Notes: generated by a model not told the origin, from the letters alone. A stretch of DNA of 64,000 nucleotides from Porphyromonas pasteri (GCF_014647755.1 NZ_BMPU01000001.1:850382-914381); one strand, 5' to 3'. Numbered from the stretch's first letter, positions 4,900 through 54,347 are shown. A program made the numbers and translations.

Positions 4900-6207
<1,308 letters not shown>

Positions 6208-38841: not shown

Positions 38842-40662
38842 ATGACTCTTGCCATCCTTGCCGTCTCACCCCAAGGGATCCAGACGGCTAAGCCAATCCT
38901 ATCCAACTATCCCGATGCTCGCCTCTTCTCCACTCACCCTGGGGAAGGGGTCGAGCACATCGATCATATCCAGTCGTTCGTAGCCGAGCAGTTCACCGCA
39001 TTCGAAGGGTGGATCTTCATCGGAGCTATGGGTATCTGTGTGCGTAGCATCGCTCCACTGATCGGGCACAAGTACACCGATCCAGCGGTGATCAACATCG
39101 ACAGCACGGGGCGCCACGTCGTCTCCGTCCTCTCTGGACACATCGGCGGTGCCAACGAGCTGACACGTGACCTCGCCGCCCTCCTCAGTGCCGAGCCCGT
39201 CATCAGCACGCAGACTGACAATACAGGCCTGTGGGCTCTGGATCTCTTCTCTCGCCGCTATGGCTGGGTGACCAAGGCCAGCTCCGAGGGGCTGAACCGC
39301 CCCATCGCTCTCTATACAAATGGAGAGAAGACCGCCCTCCTCCTCGAGGTGCAGGACAAGGGTACAAGCGAGCTGGAGCGTACCAAGGCCGACCATGTCG
39401 ACGTCTATTACTCACGTGAGGAGCTTATCCCTCGTCTCTCCGAGTACGCGCTGCTCCTCGTCGTCTCCTACCGAGCACTGGAGACCGACCTACTCCCCGT
39501 CGTGCACTTCATCCCGCCCGTATTGAGCCTCGGCCTCGGCTGCCGCTATCAGTGCGACCCCAAGGATATTGTCAGCTATATCCTCGGTGAGATACACCGT
39601 CACGGCTTCTTCCCCGAGGCCATCCACCATTTGGCGACCATCGATCTCAAGAAGGACGAGCCGCTCCTGCATGAGCTCGCCGCGACCCTCCAGCTCACTC
39701 CCGAGATCTACACCGCAGCCGACCTGGCAGACGTAGAGGTCGCTAATCCCTCGAAGAAGGTCCACGAGGTGACGGGCGTATGGGGCGTAGCTGAGAGCAC
39801 GGCACGCTATGCTGCCTCCCTCGGCAGTCTTGTCCTCGAGAAGCAGAAGGGCATGCTCCACAATGGCAATGACTTCACCTTCGCTCTGGCTGTAGAGCGC
39901 AGTGCAGAGCGCCGCGGACATATCGAGATCGTCGGTGCAGGTCCTGGTGACCCCGACCTCATCTCCATCCGTGGTCGTCAGTGGCTGGAGATCGCTGACC
40001 TCATCCTCTATGCGGGAAGCCTCGTCCCTCGTGCTCTCACGCTATGCGCTAAGCCAGGTGCTACGGTGCGTAGCTCTGCTGACATGAACCTCGAGGAGCA
40101 GTTCGCTCTGATGAAGGAGTTCTACGACAAGGGTCTCATCGTCGCCCGCCTTCACACCGGTGACCCCTGTATCTACGGGGCTATCCAGGAGCAGATGGCC
40201 TTCTTCGATGCCTATGGGATGAGCTACCATATCACCCCAGGGATCTCGTCCTTCCAGGCGGCAGCTGCAGAGCTCCGCTCACAGTTCACCATCCCCGAGA
40301 AGACGCAGACCATCATCTTGACGCGTGGCGAAGGCCGCACGAAGATGCCCGAGACGGAGCAGCTTCACCTCTTGGCTCGCTCACAGAGCACGATGTGTAT
40401 CTTCCTCAGCGCGGGTATCGTCGACGACGTACAGCGCCAGCTCCTTGAGCACTATCCCGAGGATACGCCCGTCGCGGCCTGCTACCACCTGACGTGGCCT
40501 GACCAGCGTATCTACCGTGGCGTACTGCGTGACCTCGCACAGATTGTCCACGAGAACAAGCTCACCCTGACGACGATGATCGTCGTCGGCGAAGCCATCG
40601 ACAATCGCAAGGGGCTCTCTCGCCTCTATGCCGATGAGTTCAAGCACCTCTTCCGCAAGTAG
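38842..40662 (+). CDS. bifunctional cobalamin-biosynthesis CbiG / precorrin C17-methyltransferase (CbiH/CobJ-like) fusion
   Basis: N-terminal CbiG-like half. C-terminal class-III SAM methyltransferase (tetrapyrrole methylase) with IEIVGAGPGDPDLISIRG motif. Confidence 0.75.
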   Translation: MTLAILAVSPQGIQTAKPILSNYPDARLFSTHPGEGVEHIDHIQSFVAEQFTAFEGWIFIGAMGICVRSIAPLIGHKYTDPAVINIDSTGRHVVSVLSGHIGGANELTRDLAALLSAEPVISTQTDNTGLWALDLFSRRYGWVTKASSEGLNRPIALYTNGEKTALLLEVQDKGTSELERTKADHVDVYYSREELIPRLSEYALLLVVSYRALETDLLPVVHFIPPVLSLGLGCRYQCDPKDIVSYILGEIHRHGFFPEAIHHLATIDLKKDEPLLHELAATLQLTPEIYTAADLADVEVANPSKKVHEVTGVWGVAESTARYAASLGSLVLEKQKGMLHNGNDFTFALAVERSAERRGHIEIVGAGPGDPDLISIRGRQWLEIADLILYAGSLVPRALTLCAKPGATVRSSADMNLEEQFALMKEFYDKGLIVARLHTGDPCIYGAIQEQMAFFDAYGMSYHITPGISSFQAAAAELRSQFTIPEKTQTIILTRGEGRTKMPETEQLHLLARSQSTMCIFLSAGIVDDVQRQLLEHYPEDTPVAACYHLTWPDQRIYRGVLRDLAQIVHENKLTLTTMIVVGEAIDNRKGLSRLYADEFKHLFRK

Positions 40663-40702
40663 TCTCTCGCGCTACCCAAGAGAGTAGCCAACGAGAGCAA
40701 AA

Positions 40703-40751
40703 GGTCACGGCCTCCATCCCTACCGAGTAGAGATGGAGGCCGTGACCTTTT
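40703..40751. repeat. 45-bp palindromic hairpin element, copy 1 (also serves as cbiG terminator)
   Basis: GGTCACGGCCTCCATCCCTAC-cgag-TAGAGATGGAGGCCGTGACC, preceded by CAAAA and followed by TTTTAT. Near-identical to 44071-44117. Confidence 0.75.
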
Positions 40752-40800
40752 ATATGGGGAGCGTATATCTGCTTAGATGAGGCTGTAGCCGAGAGTCCAG

Positions 40801-41215
40801 CCCTCTATTTAGAGTGCTAAGGCATCGTGCGCCCAGCTCCCCGATATACCTCTCCGAAGTGATACGCAAGCCCTTCGCCTTATCGCGAGTATTCCTCTTA
40901 TCCAGCGAAGGGAAAAGCATTGTTCTCGTGAAGAAAAAAGTGCCTTCACATAGTGGTTTTCTCTATCTACGTACGTAGTCTTAAAGACCAGGCACGTCAA
41001 TCTAAATATCCACGTACGTAGATATTAGAGCCACGTACGTAGCCCAAACTTATCTGCCACTCGTCCACAACTTTTATCCCTACGCGGAGCAACAACCTAA
41101 TATAGATCACTTCACAAAGCTATATAGGAAGCAGTCCAAAGCCATATAGCTTTGGACTGCTTCCTATATAGTTCTACCTACGCACCCATATACCTATATA
41201 TGGGATCATTGCGCA
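40801..41215. repeat. copy (d) of the ACGT-palindrome repeat family (forward) with 5 phased TATATA-core sites including a 23-bp perfect hairpin
   Basis: Core has CTACGTACGTAG at 40967-40978, CCACGTACGTAG at 41010-41021 and 41031-41042, plus a half-site remnant at ~40989. Right end has phased sites starting ~41096, 41118, 41140, 41162 and 41184; sites 2 and 4 form CTATATAGGAAGCAGTCCAAAGC-catata-GCTTTGGACTGCTTCCTATATAG. Confidence 0.8.
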
Positions 41216-41225
41216 AGGCTATCTC

Positions 41226-43803
41226 TTAGATATCGAAGGTCGCCGAGAGATAGAGGCGACGAGGACGGTTAGGCCCATAGATGTAGTCCGAAGCTCGTCC
41301 AGGACCCATATCGGTATCCTTCTGATAAGCATTGAGGAAGTTCTGTACCCCCGCATCCAGCGTGAGCTTCACCAGCGAAGTGAGGCTGATGGCATAGCTC
41401 ACACGGAAGTCAAGATCAACAAAGGGCTTTGCCTTGTATAGGTAAGCTGACCCTGCATTCTGCCCACGATAGTGCGTCCCATCACGCACGACATCAAAGT
41501 GCCCCAGAGCATTCAGCTCATTAGCTTGGAGGTTGAGATCCCCCACTCCTTCGTAGGCGGCATGAGGTACCTTCATCGAGCCCGTATAGGTGCCCGAGAG
41601 GACGAAGCTCAGAGCAGAGGTAGGACGAAGCGTAGCGGTCAGATAGCCGTAGAGATTAGGGGTACGCTCGTAGTCTCGTGTGGTGACCTTGGCCTGCGTA
41701 GGATTGTCTTCATCAGCATCGAAGAGCACCTTGTCCTGCCCGTAGAGGCTGCGCTGTAGGGTCACGCCGCCCTGCAGGTCGAAGAGGCGCTGGTACGCCA
41801 GACGAGCCTCGAAGCTCAGGCCATAGACCTTGCTCATCCCGTCACGAGCGTTGATGATCGTGATGACCTTGCGCCCCGTCTTGGGGTCGAGGACACCATC
41901 CTCGTTGTCTGGAGTGAACTTGTCTCGGATCCAGGTAGCGAAGCCTTCACCCATGAGGTTGAGCTGCCAGCCCTTCCCCAGCGTGGTGTACCAGTCGAAG
42001 GAGGCGCTGAGACTGCGAGAGCGCTCTTCCTTCAGATCCTTCGCTAGGACACGCTCCTTGGGCTCACCACCCGCCAGCGTGACATGCATCTCCTCATCGA
42101 AGAACTGAGGAGCACGGAAGCCTTCGCTGTAAGAGAGGCGCAGACTGAGGTCCTTGGTAGGATTGAAGCGTACGTTTGCTCTGGGGCTGAAGATGAGGAG
42201 CGGGTCAATGCTCTTCTGCCCCCCTTGCGTCAGACGGACATAGTCGAAGCGCCCACCGAGGAGGAAGTTCCACCGGTCGGTCGAATACTCCAGCTGGTCG
42301 TACTGAGACCAAGTCGTTGTGACCTGATCGATCCCATGAGCACGGTAGCCACTCTTATCGTTGAGCGTCGAGTAAGCACCCTCAGCACCTACCGTAAGAG
42401 TAAGTGACTTGGGGAACTTGTGGACATAGGTACCGCCCCCCTGGAAGTCAAAGCCCTTGGTCTCGCCATAGGCTGTCAGTGCCTTGAGAGCATCGTCATA
42501 GGCCTTCTGATACACCTCGGCCTGCTTCTTCTCCTCGTCAGTGCCTTGGGCATTACCACGAGGGAGGTTGATCAGGGGCTTCAGAAGCTCATCGGCGTAG
42601 TTGCCCCCACCATAGTAGCTCTTACGCAGGACCTTCTGCCCCGAGGCATAGAGACTGAAGCTGTCGTTGCCCTCAGCAGTCGTCTGGTCGAAGCGTAGGC
42701 TTCCCCCATCGACGAAGTGCTGGAGGTACTCAGCGATACGAGCTTGGAAGGGTGCTTCGCTCAGGCGATCACCACCACGACGATACTCGTGCATGGAGCG
42801 GTATTCAGCCGTCAGCTTGCCATAGATGCCCGTCTTGTAGTAGGCACGGAAGCCGAGGGCTCTATTCTTCAGTTCGGGAATATCGGTGAAGTCATCCCCA
42901 TCGACATCCACGATCCCTCGAGAGGAATGCTGACCGAAGATCATCGCAGCAGCACGGCGGTCTTCGCTGACCAGAGAACCGTTGAACGAGGTGGTAGGCA
43001 TCAGCGAAGTGTATGCCCCCTTGTTCTGCTGGAAGGAAGTATAGCTCTGGCGAAGGCTAGCGGTATTGCGCAGAGGCTCTCTTGTGATCACATTGATCAC
43101 CCCACCGACGGCATTAGCACCGAAGAGGGCTGATCCACCCCCACGTACCACCTCGACACGCTCGATCATAGAGGCAGGGATCTGCTCCAGACCATAAACG
43201 CCAGCAAGCGAGCTGAAGATAGGACGGCTATCGATGAGGATCTGAGAATAAGCCCCTTCAAGCCCGTTGATACGCACTTGGTTGAAGCCACAGTTCTGAC
43301 AGTTGTCCTCGATGCGAAGACCTGGCTGGAAGCGGAGACCTTGGCTGAGGTTCTCCGAATTGGTCTTCTTGAAGATCTCCTGCGAGAGGACGGTGACAAG
43401 GCTCGGTGCATGACGGCGAAGCGTCTCCTGACGATTAGCCGAGACGACGACCCCATCGAGGTCAATACTCTGCTGCTGGAGGTAGAGATCGAGGTGGCGA
43501 CTATTCCCAGCTTCGATACCGACACGGCTCTCCTCCACCCCATAGCCCACGAGACGTGCTTGGATGGTATAAGAGCCCGGAGCAAGGCCTTGGATGGAGA
43601 ATGCTCCATGGACATCGGTCGTCGTACCAATAGTCGTCCCCTTGATGAGAACCTGGACATTAGGAAGGGCTTCGTGAGTCGAAGCATCGACGACGGTACC
43701 CACGATACTCCCCGTCGTCGCTGAGTGCTGTGCCTGAGCTTGCCCAAGGGCCACAAGGACAAGGCTCAGCAGTAGTGCCATACGGCAAATAATACTCTTC
43801 ATG
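41226..43803 (-). CDS. TonB-dependent receptor with N-terminal carboxypeptidase-regulatory-like domain
   Basis: Signal peptide (MKSIICRMALLLSLVLVALGQAQA) and CarbopepD_reg-like domain (TGSIVGTVVDASTHEALPNVQV). Plug region (VSANRQETL...NLSQGL, DSRPIFSSL...GLEQIPASMIERVEVVRGGGSALFGANAVGGVINVITR), then a 22-strand-type barrel. Start taken at the internal Met. Confidence 0.85.
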
Positions 43804-44070
43804 TATACTATAAGTTGATTATACGAATCGGACCAACAACAGAGCAAGACGTAGTCCTCCCAGCGCAACTCACCCGTCAAAGGATCCAGGGAAAGGGCTA
43901 CATGTCGAGCGGAGAGAGAGGCTTTCTCGAGAGCGATTCCTCGGTAGAGCGAGGGATCTTGTTCTGTTTAGGTCTACACAAAGTTAAACACAGAAAGCAC
44001 AACTATGGATCACCTACCCACAAAATACCTATTGCTGGGGATAGACTGATACCCGCTAATAAGCTAATAA

Positions 44071-44117
44071 ATAGGTCACGGCCTCCATCTCTACTCGGTA
44101 GAGATGGAGGCCGTGAC
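44071..44117. repeat. 45-bp palindromic hairpin element, copy 2
   Basis: GGTCACGGCCTCCATCTCTAC-tcg-GTAGAGATGGAGGCCGTGACC, a perfect 21-bp stem. Lies between the minus-strand small-membrane-protein gene end and the TonB receptor start. Confidence 0.75.
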
Positions 44118-44140
44118 CTATTATTATTAAGGAATAGTCC

Positions 44141-44386
44141 TTAGTCCTTCTTGCGCTGAGCGATAGAGCCCGAAGACTTATCGTAGCGGTTGGAGCGACC
44201 GCCGAAGAAGAAGGGCAGGATGACCGTGAAGACCAAGAGAGCCCCCAGCACGACGAGGCCCGTGATCCAGGCCTTGGTCAAGTCGGCAGAGGTGATGGGG
44301 AGTTCGACACCCCACATCCCAAGGAGATAGAAGGCCAGCGTGGCCAGGAGAAGCAGCGTGATGATGCCGCCAAAGATGTACTTCAT
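44141..44386 (-). CDS. small two-TM membrane protein (possible SPFH partner)
   Basis: 81 aa with two hydrophobic helices and a basic C-terminal tail. Last gene of the operon. Confidence 0.5.
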   Translation of the reverse strand: MKYIFGGIITLLLLATLAFYLLGMWGVELPITSADLTKAWITGLVVLGALLVFTVILPFFFGGRSNRYDKSSGSIAQRKKD

Positions 44387-44407
44387 AAGTCAGATCTGTC
44401 TGAGGGG

Positions 44408-45463
44408 TTAGAGTTGATCAAGAATCTCTTGCTTCTTCTTGTCGTAGTCTTCCTGCGTGATGACGCCCTCGCTGAGGAGGAGCTTGAGCTGCGTGAGGCG
44501 ACGAAGCAGTGGATCATCGGAGCCGAGGTCCTCGGTCTTTACCTGAGGAGCCTCGGGTGCAGGAGTTGCAGGAGCAGGCTCTTCGCCATTTATGGTCTGA
44601 GTGAGCTTCTTACCCAGCTCCAGACCAAGCCCCATCTGCAGACCTGCGGCACCGATACCACCTTCGTTACGAGCAGCATCGCGCAGAGCCTCGAGACGCT
44701 GCATCTCTTCGTAGCTGATACCGGCTTCACTGGCAGCAAGGCTCTCGGCCGTGATGTCTGCTACGCGAGCGATACGCTGGCTCGTAGCCTTATCATAGTG
44801 GGTACCTGTGATACGCACATCCGTCAGCTCAATACCCAGCTCGTTGAGGATGGGTGCCATCGTAGATTGGAGTTCGCGAGAGATCTCGGGCAGGCGGCCG
44901 TCGATCTCGGTGATGGGATACTGATGCGCATGGAGGATAGAGGCGATCTGCTGGTAGGCACGCTCGACGATGACACTCTGGAGTGCACTTACCTCATAGT
45001 TAGCGACACCGGCACCGATGAACTGCGTGAAGAAGTGGCTGGGATCAGCGACACGGAAGGCATAGACCCCATGTACACCGAGCTCTACAGGCACCTTGTA
45101 GATCGGGTCGACGATGAGGATAGGCGTAGCCGTTCCCCAAGGGATATTGACGATCTGCGTGGTACGGAAGAAGTAGATCTGGAGCTTGTGCTCGCTCTCA
45201 AAGCCCTGACGCAGACGCACCAGCGTAGTGAAGAAGGGATGGTTGTCCGTCTTCAGCTGGAAGGAGCCTGCCTCGGTCAAGACCTCGGCGACCTTGCCTT
45301 CGTAGACGAGGAGGGCACCCTGACCAGGGGCGACGATGAGCTTACTGCCATCCTTGATTTCATCAAGTGAGGAGGGGAAGCGATACCAGAGATCGCCTGG
45401 GCGTGGATCAGCCCACTGGATGACCTGCGCCAGCTGCCCCTTGAAAACATTGAATAGACCCAT
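44408..45463 (-). CDS. SPFH/band-7 domain protein with C-terminal SHOCT domain
   Basis: 351 aa. N-terminal SPFH-like alpha/beta region, Gly/Ala/Pro-rich linker, C-terminal LLSEGVITQEDYDKKKQEIL matching the SHOCT consensus (LxxGxITxEEYxxKK). Confidence 0.7.
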   Translation of the reverse strand: MGLFNVFKGQLAQVIQWADPRPGDLWYRFPSSLDEIKDGSKLIVAPGQGALLVYEGKVAEVLTEAGSFQLKTDNHPFFTTLVRLRQGFESEHKLQIYFFRTTQIVNIPWGTATPILIVDPIYKVPVELGVHGVYAFRVADPSHFFTQFIGAGVANYEVSALQSVIVERAYQQIASILHAHQYPITEIDGRLPEISRELQSTMAPILNELGIELTDVRITGTHYDKATSQRIARVADITAESLAASEAGISYEEMQRLEALRDAARNEGGIGAAGLQMGLGLELGKKLTQTINGEEPAPATPAPEAPQVKTEDLGSDDPLLRRLTQLKLLLSEGVITQEDYDKKKQEILDQL

Positions 45464-45512
45464 AGGAAGTATTGTATGTGTGGGGTTAGAGTTATCGTGT
45501 TATCTGCTTGTG

Positions 45513-46901
45513 TTAGTCTTCGCCCTCGACGACCTTGTGGAAGTCCGTGCCTTCCTTGAGCTTACCATCATTAGTAAGCACCCAGGCCTCAGAGGAGCTC
45601 GCCACGACATAGCCACCAGAGAAGCGAGTAGTCTTCAGCGTATAAGCGAAGTGATCTTCTTCATCAGAATAGCTCCACAGCACCTTGCCCGTCTGGGCAT
45701 CCAGGCATCGGAGGATCCTTGTCGCATCAGAGGCTGCCGTGGGCTTGAAAGAAATGAGGACTCGGTCAGCTGCCTCATGAAGGACCGCAGGAGAGAAGTA
45801 GTAAGCCCCTGGGGTAAAGTCTTCGTAGCCCTGCAGGCGTGAGCGCTCTGCTGTATAAGGCAAGACGAAGACCTTGCGATAGGGCGAGGCATCAGTGAAG
45901 ATCCCAGAGCCACCATAGTCTTTCTGCCAGCCGAAGTCTGGCTCATCGTACGGATAACCGACCTGCTCAAGCGTACGGTAGCGCACCAGCTGGATCTGCT
46001 GATCCTCATAGTCAGTAGTCTGACGTGAGAAGGTAAAGTGCGTGCCGACCTTAGGAGCGGGGAGCTTCTCCAGATAGCCCTTATAGGCCATCTTCTCGCC
46101 ATAGAGCTTATTGGGGATAGGATAGTAGACAAAGCTCTTACCCAGATTTGTCATGACCTTCAGGCCATCACCATTGTCCCTATAGACGAACTCTACCGTC
46201 GCAAAGCCCTCGCTGAACTCAGCTACCTTATAGTCCTCGCCATGGATCTCCTTCATATCGAGCGTCGAGGGATCGATACGATAGAGGTGCTTCTTATTGA
46301 GGATAAGGTAAACTGACCCATCTCCGAACTGACGTAAGCCCGTCACATCGACGCTCCCCTTCAGATCAGGGAGCTGGATATCCTTGAGGACCTTCTTTGT
46401 CTCTCCATCATAGAGCCGCACAAAGCCTTGGGCATTCTTTGAGCTCGTATTCATCTGATAGGCAGAGCCACAGACCACCACGACGGGGCGCCCTGCTGCA
46501 CTGGCAAAGAGCTCGATGGGCTCCAAGTCATAGGACATACGCTCCTTCAGAGTACCGGTATAGCCGTAGCCTCCCTGTGAGGCCGCGATACGCTCGGCCA
46601 CACGGTCCATCGAGCGACTGGAGGTGAGATTACCGATGATGACCAGGAGGAAGAATGCAAACGATGCCCCTCCTGCGATGAGGAGGCTGCGCTTGGGGTG
46701 TGCTGAGAACTGCGACTGGATGAAGGAGAAGGGATTCGAGTTATCGGGTACCGTCTCATGCTTGTGATGGATGGTGATATCATCCGAGTCGAGGAAGAAC
46801 TCCGTCGAGCAGCTATCACAGCGGTAGTGATCCTCGCGGATCAGCGTGGCGCGCGTGCTACCGCACTGGGGGCATTTCAGAGCTTTGATGTGCTTGGGCA
46901 T
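45513..46901 (-). CDS. zinc-ribbon / single-TM / beta-propeller-like membrane protein, paralog A
   Basis: N-terminal MPKHIKALKCPQCGSTRATLIREDHYRCDSCSTEF (CxxC-N17-CxxC zinc ribbon), one TM (LLIAGGASFAFFLLVIIGNL), ~370-aa extracytoplasmic domain ending in a PQQ/BamB-like blade motif (RCLDAQTGKVLWSYS). Confidence 0.65.
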   Translation of the reverse strand: MPKHIKALKCPQCGSTRATLIREDHYRCDSCSTEFFLDSDDITIHHKHETVPDNSNPFSFIQSQFSAHPKRSLLIAGGASFAFFLLVIIGNLTSSRSMDRVAERIAASQGGYGYTGTLKERMSYDLEPIELFASAAGRPVVVVCGSAYQMNTSSKNAQGFVRLYDGETKKVLKDIQLPDLKGSVDVTGLRQFGDGSVYLILNKKHLYRIDPSTLDMKEIHGEDYKVAEFSEGFATVEFVYRDNGDGLKVMTNLGKSFVYYPIPNKLYGEKMAYKGYLEKLPAPKVGTHFTFSRQTTDYEDQQIQLVRYRTLEQVGYPYDEPDFGWQKDYGGSGIFTDASPYRKVFVLPYTAERSRLQGYEDFTPGAYYFSPAVLHEAADRVLISFKPTAASDATRILRCLDAQTGKVLWSYSDEEDHFAYTLKTTRFSGGYVVASSSEAWVLTNDGKLKEGTDFHKVVEGED

Positions 46902-47020
46902 ACTGGGTATGAGCTATGCGAAGAGCTATAAATATGTGTAAGTTACGAACGTGATAAAGTCCTGTATTCGTATGGGGCAAAGCCTCTACAAGGACAAATT
47001 TAAGTAAGAAATACGAGTAG

Positions 47021-48331
47021 TTAAGAGCGGCCTTCGATGAGCTTACGATAATCCGTGCTGCTCACGAGCTTACCCTCGTTGGAGATGACGTAGGACGAAC
47101 GGTTGTTCACCACGACATAGCCACCCGCGAAGCGTGATGCGACGGACCCACCATGGAGATTATTTTCATCATCGGAGTAGCTCCACAGCACCTTCCCGGT
47201 CTGGGCATCCAAGCATCGGAGCATTTGCTTAGCGTCATCGGCTGCTGTGGGCTTGAAGGTGATGAGGATCTGGTCTTCCGACTCATCAAGGACCCCAGGC
47301 GAGAAGTAATAAGCCCCAGGAGTCAGATCTTCATACCCCTGCAGACGCGCACGCTTCTCACTGGTGGAGCTGATCAAAAAGTCCTCACCATCCCAGCTCC
47401 GCCATTGGAACCTTGGGTATTCGCAAGGATAGCCGTCCTGCTCGAGTCTACGGTAGCGTATGAGCTGGAGCTGCTTATTGGGATAGTCTGAGGACTCAAG
47501 CGAAAAGGAGAAGTGTGTAGCTACCTGAGGAGCTGGGAGCGTCTCCAGAGGAGCAAAATAAGCCTCCCTCTCCGTATAGATCTTATCAGCAATGGGATAG
47601 TAGACGAAGCTCTCACCCAGATTTGTCTTGACCTCCAAGGCATCCCCAAACTGAGAGTAATAAAATACCACCTTTGCAAATCCCTGAGTGAGCTCAGGGC
47701 GCTTATAGTCCTCACCATGGACCTCCGTCATATCGAGCGTCGAGGGATCGAGCCTATAAAGGTGAGCCTCATTGAAGACAATGTAAAAAGCCCCATCCCC
47801 AAATCGGCGCATATCCATATTCTGGATTCGCCCCTTCACGTCAAGGAGCTCAATCTTCTTAACCAGCTTTTGAGTCTCCCCATCAAAGAAGGACACGAAG
47901 CTCTTAGCATCATCGACATTGCTTGAGCTGGCCGGACGAGCAGTGCCAAAGATCACGACGATCGGACGTCCCGCTGTAGTGGTAAAGGTAGCGAGCTCCT
48001 CAATACTGTAGGACATCCCCTCCTCTCCGCTACCCATCCCCGAGCTTCCTGCACGGGATCTTCCGAAGGTAATAAGCCCTATGATAATGAGTGAGAAGAA
48101 GACCGTCACCGCAAGGAGGACGAGGAAGAAGCGCTTGAACTTCGCTGCGAAGGTATTTCCGAGGGGAGATCCATTGCGCTCCGTCTCAAACTTGTGATGG
48201 ATAGTGATATCATCCGAGTCGAGATAAAACTCTGTCGAGCAGCTGTCGCAGCGGTAGTGATCCTCGCGAAGCAGTGTGGCACGCGTACTACCACACTGCG
48301 GACATTTGATCGTTTTGATATGCGTGGGCAT
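47021..48331 (-). CDS. zinc-ribbon / single-TM / beta-propeller-like membrane protein, paralog B
   Basis: MPTHIKTIKCPQCGSTRATLLREDHYRCDSCSTEFYLDSDDITIHHK; TM (FFLVLLAVTVFFSLIIIGLITF); conserved C-terminal ...PGAYYFSPGVL...FKPTAADDAKQMLRCLDAQTGKVLWSYSD. Confidence 0.65.
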   Translation of the reverse strand: MPTHIKTIKCPQCGSTRATLLREDHYRCDSCSTEFYLDSDDITIHHKFETERNGSPLGNTFAAKFKRFFLVLLAVTVFFSLIIIGLITFGRSRAGSSGMGSGEEGMSYSIEELATFTTTAGRPIVVIFGTARPASSSNVDDAKSFVSFFDGETQKLVKKIELLDVKGRIQNMDMRRFGDGAFYIVFNEAHLYRLDPSTLDMTEVHGEDYKRPELTQGFAKVVFYYSQFGDALEVKTNLGESFVYYPIADKIYTEREAYFAPLETLPAPQVATHFSFSLESSDYPNKQLQLIRYRRLEQDGYPCEYPRFQWRSWDGEDFLISSTSEKRARLQGYEDLTPGAYYFSPGVLDESEDQILITFKPTAADDAKQMLRCLDAQTGKVLWSYSDDENNLHGGSVASRFAGGYVVVNNRSSYVISNEGKLVSSTDYRKLIEGRS

Positions 48332-48407
48332 CCTGTATATGAGCTATGCAAAGAGGTATGTTTAGGTGAGAGGGCACATACTATGCAGGGGGAGGCTGGA
48401 GTTCGTG

Positions 48408-49709
48408 TTACCTAAAGCGGCTATGGATATCCACACAAGTCATCACCTTACCCTCACTGGAGATCAGCCAAGAGTGAGAGTAGTCTACCAATACATAGCC
48501 GCCAGAGAAGCGCGCTACGCCTAAGCAGAAGTCGAGGCCGTCCAGCCCCTCAGAGCAGCTCCACAGCACCTTACCCGTCTGAGCATCCAGACATCGGAGC
48601 ATCTTCTTGGCATCAGCGGCTGCCGTGGGCTTGAAGGAAATGAGGATCTGGTCAGCCGACTCATAAAGGACGGTAGGCGAGAAGTAGTAGGACCCTGGAG
48701 TAAAGTCCTCGTAGCTCTGTAAGCGTGACTGCTCTACGACGTACTGGCTGACAAAGATCTTTTTCGGATAGTATGAATGCCTGTCATTCTCCCAGCCAAA
48801 AGATGGGATATAACGAGGATATCCGAGCTGCTCCAGTGCCTGATAGCGTACAAGCTGGATCTGCTCATCCTGGTAGTCAGATCCCGTCATCTGCTCTGAG
48901 AAGGTAAAGTGAGTCCTGAGCTGAGGCGCGGGAAGCTTATCCTCATAAGCCTTGAAAATTGACCGATCAGTGTAGAGCTTATTAGCTATGGGATAGTAGA
49001 CAAACTTCTTTCCCAGATTCGTCTCGACCTCCAGGGCATCCCCATATTTGTAGAAGTAAAGCCCGACCTTACCAAAGCCCTCAGTGAACTCTGGTAGCTT
49101 ATAGTCCTCACCATGGATCTCCTTCACATCAAGCGTCGAGCGATCAATCGCAAAGAGGCGCTTCTTATTGAGGACGACATAGTAAGTCCCGTCCTCGAAC
49201 TGACGTGCATCCGTCACACTGACACTCCCCGTCACATCAGGGAGCTCAAGCTTCTTGATGATCTCATAAGTCTCTCCATCGAAGAAGTACATGAAGCCCT
49301 TAGCATGATCCCAGTCCCCACTGGAGTCGTCACGGCGCGCAGCACCACAGAGCACGACGATGGGGCGCCCTGCCGTACTGGAGAAGGCCATGAGCCGCTC
49401 ACAGGCATAGGACATATGCTCCTCACCATCCCTCTCCCTCGAGGTCTCTTCTCGAGAGCTTCCCCAGACGATGAGCCCTATAGTAATGAGCGAGAAGAAG
49501 GCCGCCGGCGCAAGGATGATGAGGAGTAGACGCCTAAGGAAGGTATTGGGAGCTGGCTTCGTCTCTACCTTGTGATGGATGGTGATATCATCCGAGTCGA
49601 GATAGAACTCCGTCGAGCAGCTGTCGCAGCGGTAGTGGTCCTCGCTAATCTTTGTAGCGCGCGTGCTACCACACTGGGGACATTTCAGAGCTTTGATATG
49701 CGTGGGCAT
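48408..49709 (-). CDS. zinc-ribbon / single-TM / beta-propeller-like membrane protein, paralog C
   Basis: Start taken at MPTHIKALKCPQCGSTRATKISEDHYRCDSCSTEFYLDSDDITIHHK (the ORF tracker's 20-codon N-terminal extension is probably spurious). TM (LLLIILAPAAFFSLITIGLIVW); conserved C-terminal block ...LRCLDAQTGKVLWSCSE. Confidence 0.65.
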   Translation of the reverse strand: MPTHIKALKCPQCGSTRATKISEDHYRCDSCSTEFYLDSDDITIHHKVETKPAPNTFLRRLLLIILAPAAFFSLITIGLIVWGSSREETSRERDGEEHMSYACERLMAFSSTAGRPIVVLCGAARRDDSSGDWDHAKGFMYFFDGETYEIIKKLELPDVTGSVSVTDARQFEDGTYYVVLNKKRLFAIDRSTLDVKEIHGEDYKLPEFTEGFGKVGLYFYKYGDALEVETNLGKKFVYYPIANKLYTDRSIFKAYEDKLPAPQLRTHFTFSEQMTGSDYQDEQIQLVRYQALEQLGYPRYIPSFGWENDRHSYYPKKIFVSQYVVEQSRLQSYEDFTPGSYYFSPTVLYESADQILISFKPTAAADAKKMLRCLDAQTGKVLWSCSEGLDGLDFCLGVARFSGGYVLVDYSHSWLISSEGKVMTCVDIHSRFR

Positions 49710-49847
49710 CCGAACGATTAAGCTAAGTGGTGAGCTGTGTAAGGGGGTGCTACAGCCCTTACATAACAAGAGGATACACCAAGAGAGCCCGCCTCTATAT
49801 GGGCAGGCTCACTTGGTGCATACTATAGTGGGTGTGAAAATGCAGAG

Positions 49848-50483
49848 CTACTTGATGAAGGTCGCGAACTCTTCCATCGAGTTGCGCACCTTCTTCATCT
49901 TACCCAGCCAGTCGCGCTCGGGGTCAGCGTAGCCGAGGTAAAGGAGCGAGACGCTACGCAGGCCCTTCTCACGCAGACCGAGGAGCTCGTCGACGAGCTT
50001 GGGGTCGAAGCCACCGATAGGCGTGCTATCGATCTTCAGCTCAGCTGCCTGTGCCAGCGCCAGACCGAGGGCGATGAAGCTCTGGTTAGCAGCGTGCTGG
50101 AACTGCTCTTCCTTAGGCATCTTACCGAACGTCTCCTTCAGCATATCGGTGTAGCGCTTGAAGCGACCACGTACCAGACCACGCTCATCGGTCGTCAGGT
50201 CGTAGATCTCATCGATACGCTCGGGCGTGTACTCATCCCAAGCAGCGAAGACGATGACGTGTGAGCACTCGCGCATGCAGTCAGGGTTCAGAGCCCCTTC
50301 GACCATCTTCTCCTTCAGCTCTTGGTTGCCGACGACGATCAGACGGAACTGCTGCAGGCCCGATGACGTGGGAGCCAGACGTGCTGCCTCGACGATCTTC
50401 ATCAGGTCTTCTTCACGGAGCTTCTTGGTGGGGTCGTAGGCCTTCGTGGCGTGGCGCCACACGAGGTCATCTAATAGTGCCAT
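49848..50483 (-). CDS. nitroreductase family NAD(P)H-dependent oxidoreductase
   Basis: 211 aa. N-terminal ...RHATKAYDP... and mid-protein nitroreductase fold motifs. Immediately upstream of paralog C on the same strand. Confidence 0.75.
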   Translation of the reverse strand: MALLDDLVWRHATKAYDPTKKLREEDLMKIVEAARLAPTSSGLQQFRLIVVGNQELKEKMVEGALNPDCMRECSHVIVFAAWDEYTPERIDEIYDLTTDERGLVRGRFKRYTDMLKETFGKMPKEEQFQHAANQSFIALGLALAQAAELKIDSTPIGGFDPKLVDELLGLREKGLRSVSLLYLGYADPERDWLGKMKKVRNSMEEFATFIK

Positions 50484-50687
50484 ATTATTTGTCTTTATAT
50501 TTAATTAATAGTGTCCTATACGTATGTAAAGATAATCACTCTCGGCGACCTAAGCTACACGGCCGGACGAAGTTCATCGTGACCGCAGAGAGAAGCCTTC
50601 ATCACGCACTCGACACCAAGCCTATCAAGGCGCATGCCCCCCGCTATCAGCACGTCACCACAGCAGCTCTACGATAGGGGCAGTACG

Positions 50688-50995
50688 AACCTATATTGGT
50701 CAAGCAAACCCTTCTTATCGCGAGGATTCTTCTTATCCAGCGGAGGGAAAAGTGTCCTTCTCGTGAAGAAAAAAGCGCTTTCACGTAGTGGTTTTTCTCT
50801 GTCTATGCACGTAGTCTTAAAGACCAGGCACGCAAATCCAAATATCCACGTACGTAGATATTAGGACCACGTACGTAGCCCAAACTTATCTGCCACTCGT
50901 CCACAACTTTTTTATCCCGACGCGAAGCAACAACCTAATAGAGGTCACTTATCAATGCTATATAGCTTCGCCCGCTGACCCATATAGGTTCACAC
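50688..50995. repeat. copy (e) of the ACGT-palindrome repeat family (forward) with 3 phased TATATA-type sites
   Basis: Left: CGAACCTATATTGGTCAAG. Core: ...CTATGCACGTAGTCTTAAAGACCAGGCACGCAAATCCAAATATCCACGTACGTAGATATTAGGACCACGTACGTAGCCCAAACTTATCTGCCACTCGTCCACAACTTTTTTATCCC. Right sites start at ~50934, 50955 and 50976. Confidence 0.8.
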
Positions 50996-51115
50996 CACCC
51001 TCCCCTATTCGTACACCGAGCGCCCTCCCGTGAGCGGGGTATAAACATGAAGAGAGGCTACCACTGCTCCCATAGAAGCAGTGATAGCCTCTGCTATCGA
51101 AATAGAGTGAAGGGA

Positions 51116-53362
51116 CTAACGCGTACCCTTACGTGACCAGCCGAACTGCAGGCCGAAGATGAAGACCACCAGCAGCAGCTCCCCGATACCGAGGAGGAGG
51201 TCACCTGGCATACGCATCCAGCGGATCAGCTGCATGTGATCCTGCTGCATAAACTCTGCCGAGCGAGCTGACCAGTAGGCATTCGTGATCGATTCGTGCG
51301 CCTGCAGGATACCAATGGGCAGGACGCTCACCGTCACCATCAGGAAGAGCCCGATATTGATCATCCAGAAGGCCGTACCGATAAGCTTGTCATTCCACTT
51401 GTAGTCGGGGTAGAGACCGCGCAGGCAGAAGAGCATCAGCCCGATACCCAGGATACCATAGACCCCGAAGAGCGCAGCGTGACCATGCACAGCCGTCGTA
51501 TTCAGCCCCTGCAGGTAGTACAGTGCGATAGGAGGATTGATAGCGAAGCCGAAGATGCCTGCCCCGAGGAAGTTCCAGAAGCACATAGCGATGAAGCAGT
51601 AGATCGGCCACTTATAGGCTTCGATCCAGTCGGTAGACTTCGAGAGCTTATAGTTGTGGTAAGCCTCCATACCGATGAGCACCAGCGGCACGATCTCCAG
51701 CGCGCTGAAGGTAGCACCAAGTGCCAGCACCGCCGTCGGCGTAGCGCTGAAGTAGAGGTGGTGGAAGGTACCGAGGATCCCCCCCGAGAGGAAGATGATC
51801 GTCGAGAAGAGTACCGAGACCGTAGCCGACTGGATACGCAGCAGCCCAAGACGGCAGAAGAGGAAGGCGGCAACGACCGTAGCAAAGACTTCGAAGAAGC
51901 CTTCTACCCAGAGGTGCACGACCCACCAGCGCCAGTACTCGGCGATAGCCATGTGCGTCTGACGACCGTACATCAGCCCAGCAGCGTAGAAGAAGGCGAT
52001 AGCCAGCGAGGCGATGATGAAAAGCGTCAGGAGGTGGCGATTCTCATCCTTGCGCTTGAGAGCGGGGATCAGTGCGCGGATCATGAGGAAGAGCCACAGC
52101 ACAAGGCCAACCAGCAGCAGGATCTGCCACAGACGGCCAAGCTCTACGTACTCGTAGCCCTGATGGCCGAGCCAGAAGTTCTCGATGAGGCCGAGCTTCT
52201 GCATGACCCCGAACCACTGACCGACGAGTGAGCCGACGACGACAAAGAGGAGCGCACCGAAGAGCACATTCACCCCGAGGCGCTGGAACTTAGGCTCGAC
52301 ACCCGACACAGCAGGTGCGATGTAGAGCCCCGTAGCCAGCCAAGAGGTAGCGATCCAGAGGATAGCCAGCTGGACGTGCCAGCTACGTGATACCGCCTGA
52401 GGGAGGAAGTCCTGGATAGGCAGCCCGAAGAGTGCGTCACCCTCGACCCCATAGTGTGCCGTGATCGCCCCGAGGACCATCTGCACGAGGATGAGGATCG
52501 ACACGATCCAGATGTACTTCGTCGTGGCGCGCATCGAGGGCGTCGGCTTCATACCACGCAGCGGATCAGAGGTGGGCAGGACGCCTACCTCGTCTTCCTT
52601 CGACTGAGCATAGTAGTAGACGAGGATACCGACGCAAGTCAGCAGCATCAGCACGCTGAAGCCCGACCAGAGGTGGAGCGAAGTGGGAGCGATATTGCCG
52701 ATCGTGGGGTCGTGAGGCCAGTTGTTGGTATAGCTGACATCCGTACCTGGGCGGTTCGTGACGCAGACCCAAGAAGCCCAAGCGAAGAAGGCGTTCATCT
52801 GCTCCATCTTGCGGGGATCTTCGATGCTCTTATCGCGCAGGGCGTAGGCCGAGCGGAGCTTCACGAACTCAGGTGAAGCGTCGCCGAGGAAGAGCTTCGC
52901 GTAGTAGGCACCCAGCTCGCGAGCGACCTCAGCACGCAGCGGCGAGTACGTGATGACGCCCGTCGCTTCGTCGAAGGTATTCTTACGCACCTCCTCACGT
53001 AGGAGGACCTGATACTTAGCCTGCTCAGCGGCAGGGAGTGAGGCATAGTCCAGACCGTCACGCTCGGCGAGCTTCTTCAGCAGGAGCTCAGCCTCACGGT
53101 GCAGGTAGTCAGCGGACCAGTCGGGAGCGATATACGCCCCGTGGCCCCATACGCTACCTACGGTCTGACCACCGATGGACTGCCATACATTTTGGCCGTC
53201 CTTAATGTCTTGACCTTCGAAGAGCGTCGTGCCATCCGTCGTCACCACCTTCGTTGGGAAGGGTGGCATCGTGCGGAAGATCTCCAGCCCAAAGAAGCCA
53301 AGTACACCGAACGACAGCAGGATGACTGCCGCCAGTGCATACCATAGTTTCTTAGGAGTCAT
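51116..53362 (-). CDS. norZ: nitric-oxide reductase large subunit, quinol-dependent type (qNOR/NorZ)
   Basis: 748 aa, the size of qNOR. N-terminal TM plus periplasmic extension (…QSIGGQTVGSVWGHGAYIAPDWSADYLHREA…) followed by a 12-TM heme-copper-oxidase-like core with conserved His clusters (HGHAALFGVYG, WVVHLWVEGFFE). Confidence 0.8.
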   Translation of the reverse strand: MTPKKLWYALAAVILLSFGVLGFFGLEIFRTMPPFPTKVVTTDGTTLFEGQDIKDGQNVWQSIGGQTVGSVWGHGAYIAPDWSADYLHREAELLLKKLAERDGLDYASLPAAEQAKYQVLLREEVRKNTFDEATGVITYSPLRAEVARELGAYYAKLFLGDASPEFVKLRSAYALRDKSIEDPRKMEQMNAFFAWASWVCVTNRPGTDVSYTNNWPHDPTIGNIAPTSLHLWSGFSVLMLLTCVGILVYYYAQSKEDEVGVLPTSDPLRGMKPTPSMRATTKYIWIVSILILVQMVLGAITAHYGVEGDALFGLPIQDFLPQAVSRSWHVQLAILWIATSWLATGLYIAPAVSGVEPKFQRLGVNVLFGALLFVVVGSLVGQWFGVMQKLGLIENFWLGHQGYEYVELGRLWQILLLVGLVLWLFLMIRALIPALKRKDENRHLLTLFIIASLAIAFFYAAGLMYGRQTHMAIAEYWRWWVVHLWVEGFFEVFATVVAAFLFCRLGLLRIQSATVSVLFSTIIFLSGGILGTFHHLYFSATPTAVLALGATFSALEIVPLVLIGMEAYHNYKLSKSTDWIEAYKWPIYCFIAMCFWNFLGAGIFGFAINPPIALYYLQGLNTTAVHGHAALFGVYGILGIGLMLFCLRGLYPDYKWNDKLIGTAFWMINIGLFLMVTVSVLPIGILQAHESITNAYWSARSAEFMQQDHMQLIRWMRMPGDLLLGIGELLLVVFIFGLQFGWSRKGTR

Positions 53363-53582
53363 GGTTAGTTGTGAGAATAATTACGCTTATACTTAACTTT
53401 GCTTTACAACTACTTGCGCAATGCAAATAGAAACCATTCAAATATAAGTGTTATTTATTTATTCCCACTCATCAACTCGATGAAATTGGTGAAAACCATG
53501 CATACACCCCTACCGCACAGGGGGTAGCGATTTACATATTCGCCCCACGGAAATAGGAGGAGGGGGCTGCGGCTTGGTACAA

Positions 53583-53613
53583 AAAGCCCCGAAGACCTGA
53601 GGCCTTCGGGGCT
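53583..53613 (-). terminator. terminator hairpin downstream of lrgB (minus strand)
   Basis: Plus strand ACAAAAAGCCCCGAAGacctgaggCCTTCGGGGCTTAT. On the minus strand the stem is followed by TTTTTGT. Confidence 0.6.
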
Positions 53614-53639
53614 TATGATAGCGAGTTGGGGATATGCGC

Positions 53640-54347
53640 TTAGCCGAACCAGCGAGCAAAGAGCGGCAGGAGGATGGAGGTCATCAGCCCCATGATCCCG
53701 ATCGCCAGCCCACTCAGAGCACCTTCGATAGCGCCCATCTGGATAGCAGCAGCCGTACCGATACCATGCGACGAAGCACCCATCGCCAGCCCCTTCGCCA
53801 CGGGGCTCTTGATCTTCATCAGCTTCATGATCGGAGGGCCGATGATACTACCGATGATACCCGCACAGACGACGATGACGGCCGTCAGCCCGGGGATACC
53901 ACCGTTGTGACCTGCCAGCTCCATCGCGATAGGCGTCGTCACGGACTTCGGTGCAAGCGAAGCGATGAGCGAGCTCTTTACGCCGAGGAGATGACCGACA
54001 CCGACGATAGAGCCGATACCCACCATAGCACCGATGGTGATAGCTACGATGATAGAGATCGCGTTCTTCTTCAGATGTGCCACCTGCTCATAGAGGATGT
54101 AGCCGAGAGCGACGACCGAAGGGCCGAGCATGAAGTGAATCATACGGCTCCCCTCGCGGAAGGTCTCGTAGGGTACCTTCAGTGCGGTGAGGATGAGGAT
54201 CAGCTCGATGATCGTCACCAGCACGGGGTGCAGCAGCGAGTGCAGTACAGGTACTTGCACCCAGCGATGGATCTTGATATTGATGAGGTAGAGGCCGATG
54301 ACGAACGTGATCGTGAAGACCTCGCTGTGGAAGAAGTGCTCGAGCAT
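53640..54347 (-). CDS. lrgB: LrgB family membrane protein
   Basis: 235-aa polytopic protein downstream of the lrgA-like gene. Confidence 0.75.
   Translation of the reverse strand: MLEHFFHSEVFTITFVIGLYLINIKIHRWVQVPVLHSLLHPVLVTIIELILILTALKVPYETFREGSRMIHFMLGPSVVALGYILYEQVAHLKKNAISIIVAITIGAMVGIGSIVGVGHLLGVKSSLIASLAPKSVTTPIAMELAGHNGGIPGLTAVIVVCAGIIGSIIGPPIMKLMKIKSPVAKGLAMGASSHGIGTAAAIQMGAIEGALSGLAIGIMGLMTSILLPLFARWFG

Follow-up and report, generated by a model that had tools for sequence, protein, structure and literature searches.

A conserved zinc-ribbon/propeller, SPFH and small membrane protein gene module in Bacteroidota

Three adjacent genes, annotated only as hypothetical, are conserved across the phylum Bacteroidota. 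They encode a protein with a zinc ribbon, a single transmembrane (TM) helix and a predicted beta-propeller, an SPFH protein, and a small protein with two TM helices, which we name F, S and M, respectively. In Porphyromonas pasteri, where we analyzed a stretch of 64,000 nucleotides (the window), F is present in three copies (C, B and A). Our best reading is that these genes form a Bacteroidota-specific variant of the YdjGHI/SamGHI type of SPFH module. An earlier note on this DNA presented the cluster as a candidate undescribed module, and no paper or family model describing F-S-M was found in the literature and databases searched.

Organization of the locus in P. pasteri

The five open reading frames claimed in the earlier note are all present on the minus strand (Table 1). 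The distances between them had been given as 45-76 bp; the computed gaps are 76 bp between C and B, 119 bp between B and A, 49 bp between A and the SPFH gene, and 21 bp between the latter and the small gene. For paralog C, the mechanical ORF begins 20 codons further upstream than the ATG used here, at a TTG. The nitroreductase gene and the repeat copy described upstream of the cluster were both confirmed, and a TonB-dependent receptor is encoded on the other side. In the protein records of P. pasteri, paralog A matches exactly WP_188807712.1, annotated as "hypothetical protein", and S matches exactly WP_188807711.1.

The only strong terminator-like hairpin between positions 43900 and 50700 follows the last gene, which makes it plausible, as judged from the sequence, that the five genes are cotranscribed as an operon. 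A second copy of the terminator palindrome occurs at 40699-40753. A promoter-like motif, TAAATTTG, sits in the gap between B and A, 94 nt ahead of the start codon of A.

Table 1. Features of the cluster and its surroundings in the window
Feature	Position	Strand	Basis or remark
Paralog C: zinc ribbon / 1 TM / beta-propeller (predicted), 433 aa	48408..49709	-	ORF, ATG at 49709
Paralog B: zinc ribbon / 1 TM / beta-propeller (predicted), 436 aa	47021..48331	-	ORF
Paralog A: zinc ribbon / 1 TM / beta-propeller (predicted), 462 aa	45513..46901	-	ORF; adjoins SPFH gene
SPFH protein S (Band_7_1), Gly-rich segment and SHOCT-like C-terminal helix pair, 351 aa	44408..45463	-	ORF and Pfam
Small 2-TM protein M, 81 aa	44141..44386	-	ORF and hydropathy
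Zinc ribbon and acidic motif of C, residues 1-47, predicted cytoplasmic	49569..49709	-	Cys 10, 13, 28, 31
Zinc ribbon and acidic motif of B, residues 1-47, predicted cytoplasmic	48191..48331	-	Sequence, AlphaFold2 model, conservation
Zinc ribbon and acidic motif of A, residues 1-47, predicted cytoplasmic	46761..46901	-	Paralog comparison, conservation
Single TM helix of B, residues 60-88	48068..48154	-	Hydropathy and AlphaFold2 helix 60-88
Terminator-like hairpin, 20-bp stem, 12 G-C pairs	44073..44119	-	Hairpin search; 3' of last gene
TAAATTTG, match to Bacteroidetes -7 consensus TAnnTTTG	46995..47002	-	Pattern search; consensus match only
Nitroreductase	49848-50483		Upstream of cluster
Repeat copy	50714-50965		Upstream of cluster

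Conservation of the gene neighborhood

Using F alone as the query, we retrieved 80 loci, of which 78 could be assessed, the other two being contig ends. The S gene lies immediately 3' of the F gene and on the same strand in 78/78 loci, which span Bacteroidales, Sphingobacteriales, Chitinophagales, Cytophagales, and Flavobacteriales. Hence, the linkage to an SPFH gene that the earlier note saw in one genome extends to five orders. The genes are tightly packed, with a median F-S gap of 5 nt (at most 100 nt in 69 of 73) and a median S-M gap of 18 nt, and a homologue of M follows the S gene in at least 68 of the 80 loci. When the ORFs of the 80 loci were clustered, F, S and M were the only gene clusters conserved across genera, with no conserved fourth gene.

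The genes around the trio are unrelated housekeeping genes. Synteny is stable inside genera, and the neighborhood varies between them. No Pfam family recurs in the flanks of more than 3 of the 41-42 sampled loci; a TPM_phosphatase protein is the upstream neighbor in 1 of 42. PspA is absent both between the nitroreductase and the TonB-dependent receptor genes and among the flanking families of the 41-42 loci. The nitroreductase/NO-reductase neighborhood is confined to close relatives within Porphyromonas and therefore offers no functional clue.

The earlier note regarded the triplication of F as part of the module. It is instead a trait of the Porphyromonas lineage, since F is present as a single copy in 69/80 loci. 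The three paralogs are 55-58% identical in protein (58% for C and B, 57% for C and A) and 66-68% in DNA. A separate orthologue of each occurs in another Porphyromonas species, with 62-71% identity (71% for C and its orthologue in an uncultured Porphyromonas MAG), which indicates that the paralogs are old and have been maintained. In a neighbor-joining tree, A clusters with the one F protein of Porphyromonas sp. oral taxon 278, to which it is 67% identical. A adjoins the SPFH gene and is probably the ancestral copy.

The three proteins

The F family has 412 representatives (50% identity, E<=1e-3) among 1.84 billion proteins, and nearly all of the best 150 of these align from residue 1 to about 430. 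The zinc-ribbon / single-TM / beta-propeller architecture that had been proposed for F holds. In each of the three paralogs, CPQC occupies residues 10-13 and CDSC residues 28-31 (12 residues separate CPQCGS from CDSC, where 13 had been counted), and in the AlphaFold2 model these cysteines belong to a 3-stranded Cys4 ribbon of ~25 residues. Together with an acidic motif, FLDxDDININH, the ribbon makes up an N-terminal part of ~47 residues. One hydrophobic helix follows at about residues 60-93 by hydropathy, with a modest positive-inside bias around it (2.6 vs 1.8 K+R residues), and then an all-beta ectodomain of about 340-370 aa whose predicted structure is a beta-propeller. We infer that F is a bitopic inner-membrane protein, in which the ribbon would be nearly the only cytoplasmic part and the propeller would be periplasmic.

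Conservation in F is highest at residues 1-47, with a majority fraction of 0.76 vs 0.49 for the propeller. Among the paralogs, they are 80-96% identical, and the remainder of the protein ranges roughly from 15 to 75% per stretch of 25 columns. Residues 42-48 are conserved and yet modeled with low confidence in the AlphaFold2 monomer, as expected of a segment that becomes ordered on a partner.

The relations of the propeller to known families are distant. The blade motif LRCLDAQTGKVLWS, at about residues 371-384, was thought to end the ectodomain but actually lies in the region of the penultimate blade. It gives sub-threshold matches to PQQ_2/BamB in Pfam (E 0.005-0.04, with 14-17 bits vs a cutoff of 27.6), such that F does not reach membership in these families. 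The motif also gives hits to designed "Cake" propellers. The best named match is NF041516 (the PA2928 family of NCBIfam), which covers the ectodomain except for its N-terminal third (E 1e-8 at profile positions 154-338 for B, E 1e-7 at 155-375 for A), with scores far below the cutoff of 70 bits for all paralogs (C 18.2, B 34.6, and A 31.4 bits). PA2928 itself is a hypothetical protein of Pseudomonas aeruginosa that appears just in the list of a colistin-susceptibility screen (PMC4244539).

The assignment of S to the SPFH/band-7 proteins is clear by sequence, with 139.7 bits to Band_7_1 (PF13421; cutoff 24, E 1.3e-40, residues 27-221) and 38.5 bits to PF01145 (cutoff 23.6, E 1.6e-9). It has a conserved, hydrophobic Gly-rich segment, and no TM segment was found by hydropathy. 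As to the C-terminal SHOCT helix of the earlier note, the motif KLxKLKLLLdExIITQEEFDxKKKxxL is kept in all S orthologues and is SHOCT-like, but the match to SHOCT (PF09851, residues 322-348) scores 25.4 bits, below the cutoff of 27. The Ralstonia homologue of S scores 26.9 bits. SHOCT is most often fused to PF13421, and a role in oligomerization was proposed for it (PMC3581485). The AlphaFold2 monomer of S has a pLDDT of 39, from an alignment of just 7 sequences, and no sequence relative of S was found in the PDB at E<0.01.

M has the two hydrophobic helices previously described, as judged by hydropathy, and a basic C-terminal tail with a conserved GYD...G.vAqpK motif. It has no Pfam match to an NfeD, protease or TPM domain, and neither M nor F matches NfeD at E<=0.1. 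One source names M "outer membrane assembly protein", an unverified automatic label.

Comparison with known SPFH systems

The closest known arrangement is the pspA-ydjGHI (samGHI) operon of Bacillus subtilis, which also combines a soluble PF13421 SPFH protein, a zinc-ribbon membrane protein, and a second membrane protein. Here as well, the gene of a soluble Band_7_1 protein adjoins that of a zinc-ribbon membrane protein. In Bacillus, YdjI depends on YdjH and on YdjG, a membrane protein with a zinc ribbon, to be localized at the membrane (PMC8581546; bioRxiv 10.64898/2026.02.06.704340), and SamI restrains SamG-SamH signaling (bioRxiv 10.64898/2026.02.06.704340). The differences are nevertheless considerable. 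PspA belongs to the Bacillus operon, whereas the F-S-M module has neither PspA nor a TPM-domain protein nor a transcription factor. According to the description in PMC11237479, YdjG combines an NTF2-like domain and a TM segment with two zinc ribbons, whereas in F a single ribbon is followed by a TM helix and by a propeller predicted to be periplasmic. YdjH is a TPM-domain protein, and M is an 81-aa protein with two TM helices and without a TPM match. YdjI ends in a zinc finger and S in a SHOCT-like helix pair. Finally, the phyla and envelope types differ, the Bacteroidota being diderm. The earlier note proposed either a Bacteroidetes counterpart of ydjGHI or a distinct sensing/scaffolding system; we reject the former in the sense of homology, given the lack of PspA and of a TPM protein like YdjH in the module, and a propeller protein unlike YdjG as described.

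Similar pairs occur elsewhere. In replicons of Ralstonia, Vibrio, and Tsukamurella, a Band_7_1 gene is followed by that of a protein with N-terminal CxxC...CxxC zinc ribbons and a TM anchor; these YdjG-like partners come from three further phyla and lie mostly in the cytoplasm, the anchor being at the C-terminus. Zinc ribbons are common, and their recurrence beside Band_7_1 in the four sampled contexts is thus suggestive, not statistical. The "ydjI" locus of the Ralstonia solanacearum megaplasmid resembles the module in having Band_7_1, the Gly-rich AARNEGG...G.G and a SHOCT-like tail in the S homologue, and a zinc-ribbon membrane protein encoded next door. Yet, this partner joins its zinc ribbons to DUF4178 and to TM helices at the C-terminus, is accompanied by a DUF350 protein and lacks a propeller, and the gene order is reversed, S preceding its partner. 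The operons of SPFH and NfeD proteins (stomatin/NfeD, flotillin/YuaF/YqiJ, QmcA-YbbJ) share the association of an SPFH protein with a small multi-TM partner (PMC2636767). They differ from the Bacteroidota module, in which S itself lacks an anchor in the membrane, M carries neither the OB-fold of NfeD nor a protease domain, and there is an additional large propeller protein.

Interpretation

We favor, with moderate confidence, the view that the F-S-M operon encodes a membrane-associated SPFH complex of Bacteroidota in which the propeller protein anchors or senses and the SPFH protein scaffolds or restrains. S would be a soluble Band_7_1 protein of the YdjI/SamI type. F, probably with M, would bring S, as an oligomer, to the inner membrane by physical contact with the zinc ribbon and the acidic motif, and the propeller would bind or monitor a component of the envelope, possibly under stress. 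S would in turn scaffold or restrain these membrane proteins, in the manner of SamI with SamG-SamH in B. subtilis. The basic tail of M may be cytoplasmic, and the SHOCT-like tail of S may serve in oligomerization.

Other readings were weighed against this one. SPFH proteins classically regulate membrane proteases and share operons with small membrane partners (PMC2636767; bioRxiv 10.64898/2026.02.06.704340), and M could be such a partner. S might then assemble into a cage and control a protease whose gene lies elsewhere, as in the HflK/C-FtsH or stomatin-NfeD types, with F as substrate or adaptor. We consider such a role in proteolysis or quality control unlikely: neither M nor the flanks provide a protease or NfeD domain, and S is without the TM helix that HflK/C and stomatins have at the N-terminus and falls in the soluble Band_7_1 group rather than in the core Band_7 families. 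We give just as little weight to the idea that F acts alone in the periplasm, as a BamB/TolB-like factor of envelope biogenesis or tethering, with S and M as co-regulated housekeeping proteins having no direct contact between F and S. The weak BamB/PQQ_2 matches, the generic propeller fold, and the automatic label of M go in this direction, but an adjacency without exception across five orders, with gaps of a few nucleotides, is typical of the subunits of one complex, and the strongest constraint is on the short, predicted cytoplasmic ribbon and not on the propeller.

The layout of F, with a zinc-binding N-terminus, one TM helix, and a periplasmic domain, is also that of zinc-binding anti-sigma factors with a periplasmic sensor, here the propeller. 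This explanation is largely refuted and now hardly credible, since the N-terminus is a Cys4 beta ribbon and not a helical HxxxCxxC domain, and F matches no anti-sigma Pfam family. The earlier note saw no sigma factor nearby, and this extends to the flanks of 41-42 diverse loci and to the ORF clustering of the 80, where sigma-factor families are absent. Slightly less implausible, but still very unlikely, is an anti-phage or abortive-infection module, or a part of a mobile element. The ribbon has sub-threshold matches to transposase zinc-ribbon families in Pfam, one Sphingobacterium record calls the F homologue "transposase", and the neighborhood differs between genera. Against this, no defense-system HMM of PADLOC-DB 2.0 matches any of the five proteins, F homologues are absent from 72,556 plasmids and 50,697 phage records, a transposase catalytic domain is absent, and, as shown above, synteny is stable within genera with housekeeping flanks.

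A complex for sensing or scaffolding in the envelope is the most likely identity of the Bacteroidota module, and complexes of this kind have so far been studied just in Bacillus. In P. pasteri, the three F proteins have near-identical ribbons and diverged propellers, and several periplasmic inputs could in this way share one SPFH scaffold.

Conservation of the module across Bacteroidota

The zinc-ribbon/propeller membrane protein (F), the soluble Band_7_1 SPFH protein (S), and the 81-aa protein with two transmembrane (TM) helices (M) are encoded by a real gene module, which is kept across the phylum Bacteroidota and is unannotated. F, present in the window as three paralogs (A, B, and C), is named "hypothetical protein" in public records, and we found no description of the module in the searched literature. 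Using a profile of A, B, and C, we searched 1.84 billion proteins and retrieved 412 representatives of the F family at 50% identity (E<=1e-3), with a full-length match in nearly all of the best 150 relatives listed. With the zinc-ribbon family as the sole query, 214 matching stretches were confirmed in a scan of one genome per species. All of the best 80 loci belong to Bacteroidota, among them Porphyromonas, Tannerella, Prevotella/Hoylesella, Proteiniphilum, Sphingobacterium, Pedobacter, Mucilaginibacter, Niabella, Hymenobacter, Flavobacterium, Chryseobacterium, and Capnocytophaga. An orthologue of S (39-80% identity) lies directly downstream of F on the same strand in 78 of these 80 loci, and the remaining two stop at a contig edge. 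The linkage to an SPFH gene, which the earlier note had raised for Bacteroidales, is thus phylum-wide.

The genes are tightly packed, with a median gap of 5 nt between F and S and of 18 nt between S and M. When every ORF in the 80 loci was clustered all-against-all, only three clusters crossed genera: F (80 loci), S (77), and M (68). The next real clusters reach at most 18 loci and reflect the synteny of close relatives, chiefly Sphingobacterium. We also scanned with Pfam the largest flanking gene on each side of 41-42 diverse loci. These genes have unrelated housekeeping functions, no Pfam family occurs more than three times, and neither a sigma factor nor PspA is among them. Directly upstream of the module, a protein with a TPM_phosphatase domain, the domain of Bacillus subtilis YdjH, was seen in one of the 42 loci whose upstream neighbours were aligned; this may be a coincidence.

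Organization of the locus in Porphyromonas pasteri

The intergenic gaps along C-B-A-S-M measure 76, 119, 49, and 21 bp. A hairpin search found a terminator-like structure just past M (44073-44119), the sole strong one in 43900-50700, and by pattern search the B-A gap contains TAAATTTG, which fits the Bacteroidetes -7 promoter consensus. On this pattern evidence, a single transcription unit that stops at the hairpin is plausible, and A may have an internal promoter ahead of it. The module ends in a 55-nt G+C-rich palindrome (44070-44124), and a second copy, 89-94% identical, lies at 40699-40753, on the far side of the TonB-dependent receptor gene. The palindrome looks like a REP-like bidirectional terminator element. 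Upstream of the module, the synteny with the nitroreductase and quinol-type nitric-oxide reductase genes is common to close Porphyromonas relatives (L001-L004 and L007 among the homologous loci) and is not found in other genera. A nitrosative-stress link based on these neighbours was therefore dropped as a functional clue.

Features of the window and of the compared Band_7_1 loci (locus coordinates for the last three rows)
Feature	Position	Strand	Evidence or remark
Paralog C	48408-49709	minus	ORF, 433 aa
Paralog B	47021-48331	minus	ORF, 436 aa
Paralog A	45513-46901	minus	ORF, 462 aa; exact match to WP_188807712.1
SPFH protein S	44408-45463	minus	ORF, 351 aa; exact match to WP_188807711.1
Small protein M	44141-44386	minus	ORF, 81 aa
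Nitroreductase gene, upstream flank	49848-50483		ORF and Pfam
Quinol-type nitric-oxide reductase gene, upstream	51116-53362		NorB cytochrome-c-like domain and COX1
TonB-dependent receptor gene, other flank of the five-ORF cluster	41226-43880		
Intergenic repeat copies (three in one orientation, two in the other)	27941-28147, 33344-33593, 40878-41127, 50714-50965, 59039-59267		
Band_7_1 context with zinc-ribbon partner, L085 (Ralstonia solanacearum megaplasmid)	5112-6560		
Band_7_1 context with zinc-ribbon partner, L086	5096-6154		
Band_7_1 context with zinc-ribbon partner, L087	5311-6408		

A repeat of about 200-250 nt also occurs in five intergenic places of the window, its copies being 66-88% identical; that at 50714-50965 is the "repeat copy e" of the earlier note. 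Three of the five carry a promoter-like motif, TAAGTTTG, and four lie upstream of a gene. The other (40878-41127) sits between convergent genes, so a promoter role alone does not account for the repeat. Rfam gave no match in 40000-54000, a stretch that includes two of the copies. Two more sets of tandem divergent repeats occur at 63-2031 and 12251-13720. In one of them, three copies follow at intervals of about 900 bp, and every copy ends in KPYNPIELE-stop; in the other, two copies are spaced by about 845 bp. Both are probably tandem paralogous genes.

Architecture of the three proteins

The paralogs A, B, and C share 55-58% protein identity and 66-68% DNA identity in pairwise comparisons. A Cys4 ribbon (C10-P-x-C13 ... 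C28-x-x-C31) and then an acidic FLDSDDITIHHK motif form the start of each protein; a linker, short and variable, leads from there to a single hydrophobic helix, after which about 340-370 residues remain. The AlphaFold2 model of B, built from a 44-sequence family alignment, has a mean pLDDT of 89.3 and shows a three-stranded ribbon (18-36), a helix (60-88), and around 25 beta strands (106-427), mostly with pLDDT above 90. Matches of the F ectodomain to PQQ_2/BamB, DUF5074, and the NCBIfam PA2928 family all fall under the family cutoffs. Considering the modelled strands and these sub-cutoff matches, the ectodomain is predicted to be a propeller in a protein that belongs to no named family. The Cys4 motif, hydropathy, and the model together bear out the zinc-ribbon, single-TM, propeller architecture read earlier from the sequence. 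From the Cys4 ribbon, together with a positive-inside bias of modest size, we infer that the N-terminus is cytoplasmic and the propeller periplasmic.

S matches Pfam Band_7_1 (E 1.3e-40) as well as Band_7, and hydropathy revealed no hydrophobic helix in it. Its C-terminus is a SHOCT-like helix pair scoring just under the cutoff (25.4 bits vs 27); the combination of Band_7_1 and SHOCT was already known (PMC3581485). This tail is kept in all orthologues, as is a Gly-rich segment, ALRDAARNEGGxAGAGxQxGxGxExGK, a hydrophobic, glycine-zipper-like stretch at residues ~255-285, outside the Pfam Band_7_1 domain. The segment is recognisable also in proteobacterial and actinobacterial Band_7_1 proteins (Ralstonia, Vibrio, Tsukamurella), and throughout the Band_7_1 family it may serve in membrane contact or in oligomerisation. 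The AlphaFold2 model of S, built on 7 aligned sequences, was too poor to use (pLDDT 39). M has two hydrophobic helices; its C-terminal tail is basic, and a GYD...G.vAqpK motif is conserved there.

Paralog history

Most loci have a single copy of F (69 of 80), ten have two, and one, in Ginsengibacter, has three. A clusters with the gene that Porphyromonas sp. oral taxon 278 has in single copy. For B and C, separate orthologues occur in another uncultured Porphyromonas, apparently a carrier of four F copies; A, B, and C are therefore not recent copies. Given the prevalence of single-copy loci and the separate orthologues, the triplication is a lineage-specific, long-maintained expansion, in which the short cytoplasmic module is kept constant and the periplasmic domain diverges. 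Across 74 family members, residues 1-47 are the most conserved part of F (mean majority fraction 0.76), ahead of the propeller (0.49) and the linker and TM region (~0.3). Among A, B, and C, residues 1-50 are 80-96% identical, and other 25-column stretches range from ~15% to 75%. Recent gene conversion was considered as a source of these near-identical ribbons and found no support, since third-position identity in the zinc-ribbon region (67-91%) is only somewhat raised over the gene-wide value (65-73%) and the paralogs have separate orthologues. Purifying selection explains the ribbons better. In four Pedobacter and Flavobacterium loci (L045, L048, L053, and L058), a second, divergent F copy (F') lies past M, in the order F-S-M-F', rather than in tandem ahead of S; these copies have 21-26% identity to B.

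Comparison with other Band_7_1 systems

The closest studied system is the pspA-ydjGHI operon of B. subtilis, renamed samGHI, where membrane localisation of the soluble Band_7_1 protein YdjI/SamI requires the zinc-ribbon protein YdjG and YdjH, and where YdjI/SamI ties PspA to the membrane and holds SamG-SamH signalling in check (PMC8581546; bioRxiv 10.64898/2026.02.06.704340). By comparative genomics, YdjG has been described as carrying two zinc ribbons, an NTF2-like domain, and one TM segment, and YdjH as having a TPM domain (PMC11237479). A 2009 survey of prokaryotic SPFH proteins listed no documented members or partners for the soluble subfamilies (PMC2636767). Our comparison rests on these published descriptions and on YdjG-like partners in three other phyla. 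We sampled Band_7_1 genes in three further contexts, on a plasmid of Vibrio, on one of Tsukamurella, and on a Ralstonia megaplasmid. The gene after each of them encodes a zinc-ribbon partner, whose CxxC...CxxC ribbons lie at the N-terminus or close to it and whose TM anchor is C-terminal. DUF4178 is an additional domain of the Ralstonia partner. The SPFH proteins themselves differ in their C-terminal domain, which is SHOCT in Ralstonia and GYF_2 in both Vibrio and Tsukamurella. In four phyla, then, Band_7_1 proteins are found paired with zinc-ribbon membrane proteins, a theme that the Bacteroidota module shares.

The earlier note had proposed either a Bacteroidetes counterpart of the ydj operon or a distinct sensing/scaffolding system. 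What stands is the shared theme, as S is likewise paired with a zinc-ribbon membrane protein. However, the partner is different: unlike YdjG as described, F has one ribbon, an N-terminal TM helix, and a periplasmic propeller. The module also lacks PspA and a TPM protein, and its third gene encodes a tiny 2-TM protein. F-S-M is best classed as a fresh variation on the theme of an SPFH protein with a membrane partner, not as a new principle, although it is a clearly delimited system that can be tested and that comes with its own series of paralogs.

Proposed mechanism and alternatives

As the simplest model, we propose that F, with M, would dock an oligomer of S at the inner membrane, that the propeller would read or bind something periplasmic, and that S would scaffold or restrain the F-S-M complex. 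The docking model follows from the ribbon and acidic motif being nearly the sole cytoplasmic part of F and its most constrained one, and from S being soluble although its family acts at the membrane through zinc-ribbon partners. That the three proteins form a physical and functional complex of this kind seems to us slightly better than an even bet; the specific docking role of the zinc ribbon is held with less assurance. The rival readings are that S controls a protease, or that F has a periplasmic function independent of S and M. A zinc-binding N-terminus ahead of a single helix also recalls anti-sigma factors, but this reading is largely excluded, since no sigma factor occurs in any flank examined (ORF clustering of 80 loci, Pfam in 41-42) and the zinc domain modelled in B is of the wrong type. 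A defence system or mobile element is also largely excluded: the PADLOC models match none of the five window proteins, and the F family has no relatives in plasmid or phage collections.

A further-reaching version of the docking model, which we regard as rather unlikely, is a Bacteroidota-specific trans-envelope signalling device with interchangeable propeller "receptors", a shared cytoplasmic ribbon/acidic dock, and a cytoplasmic SPFH cage that M keeps at the membrane. Such a device would work without a kinase or a sigma factor: a periplasmic ligand would shift the SPFH assembly, and this in turn would act on a downstream effector or on how the membrane is organised. The expansions of F paralogs in Porphyromonas and Ginsengibacter would then be receptor repertoires diversified on one scaffold.

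SPFH/flotillin-like proteins are ubiquitous, and to our knowledge the targeting and regulatory role of the soluble Band_7_1 type is known from one Bacillus operon only. This work defines a compact three-gene module, phylum-wide in Bacteroidota, whose carriers include oral or opportunistic pathogens (Tannerella forsythia, Prevotella/Hoylesella, Capnocytophaga, Porphyromonas) and the genetically tractable Flavobacterium, Pedobacter, and Sphingobacterium. It suggests a testable general rule, that Band_7_1 SPFH proteins partner zinc-ribbon membrane proteins, and the Porphyromonas locus, where a single scaffold is encoded with three periplasmic domains that have diverged, offers a natural experiment on what such systems sense. 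If the docking model is true, the SamGHI principle of an SPFH-restrained sensor complex would reach diderm bacteria.
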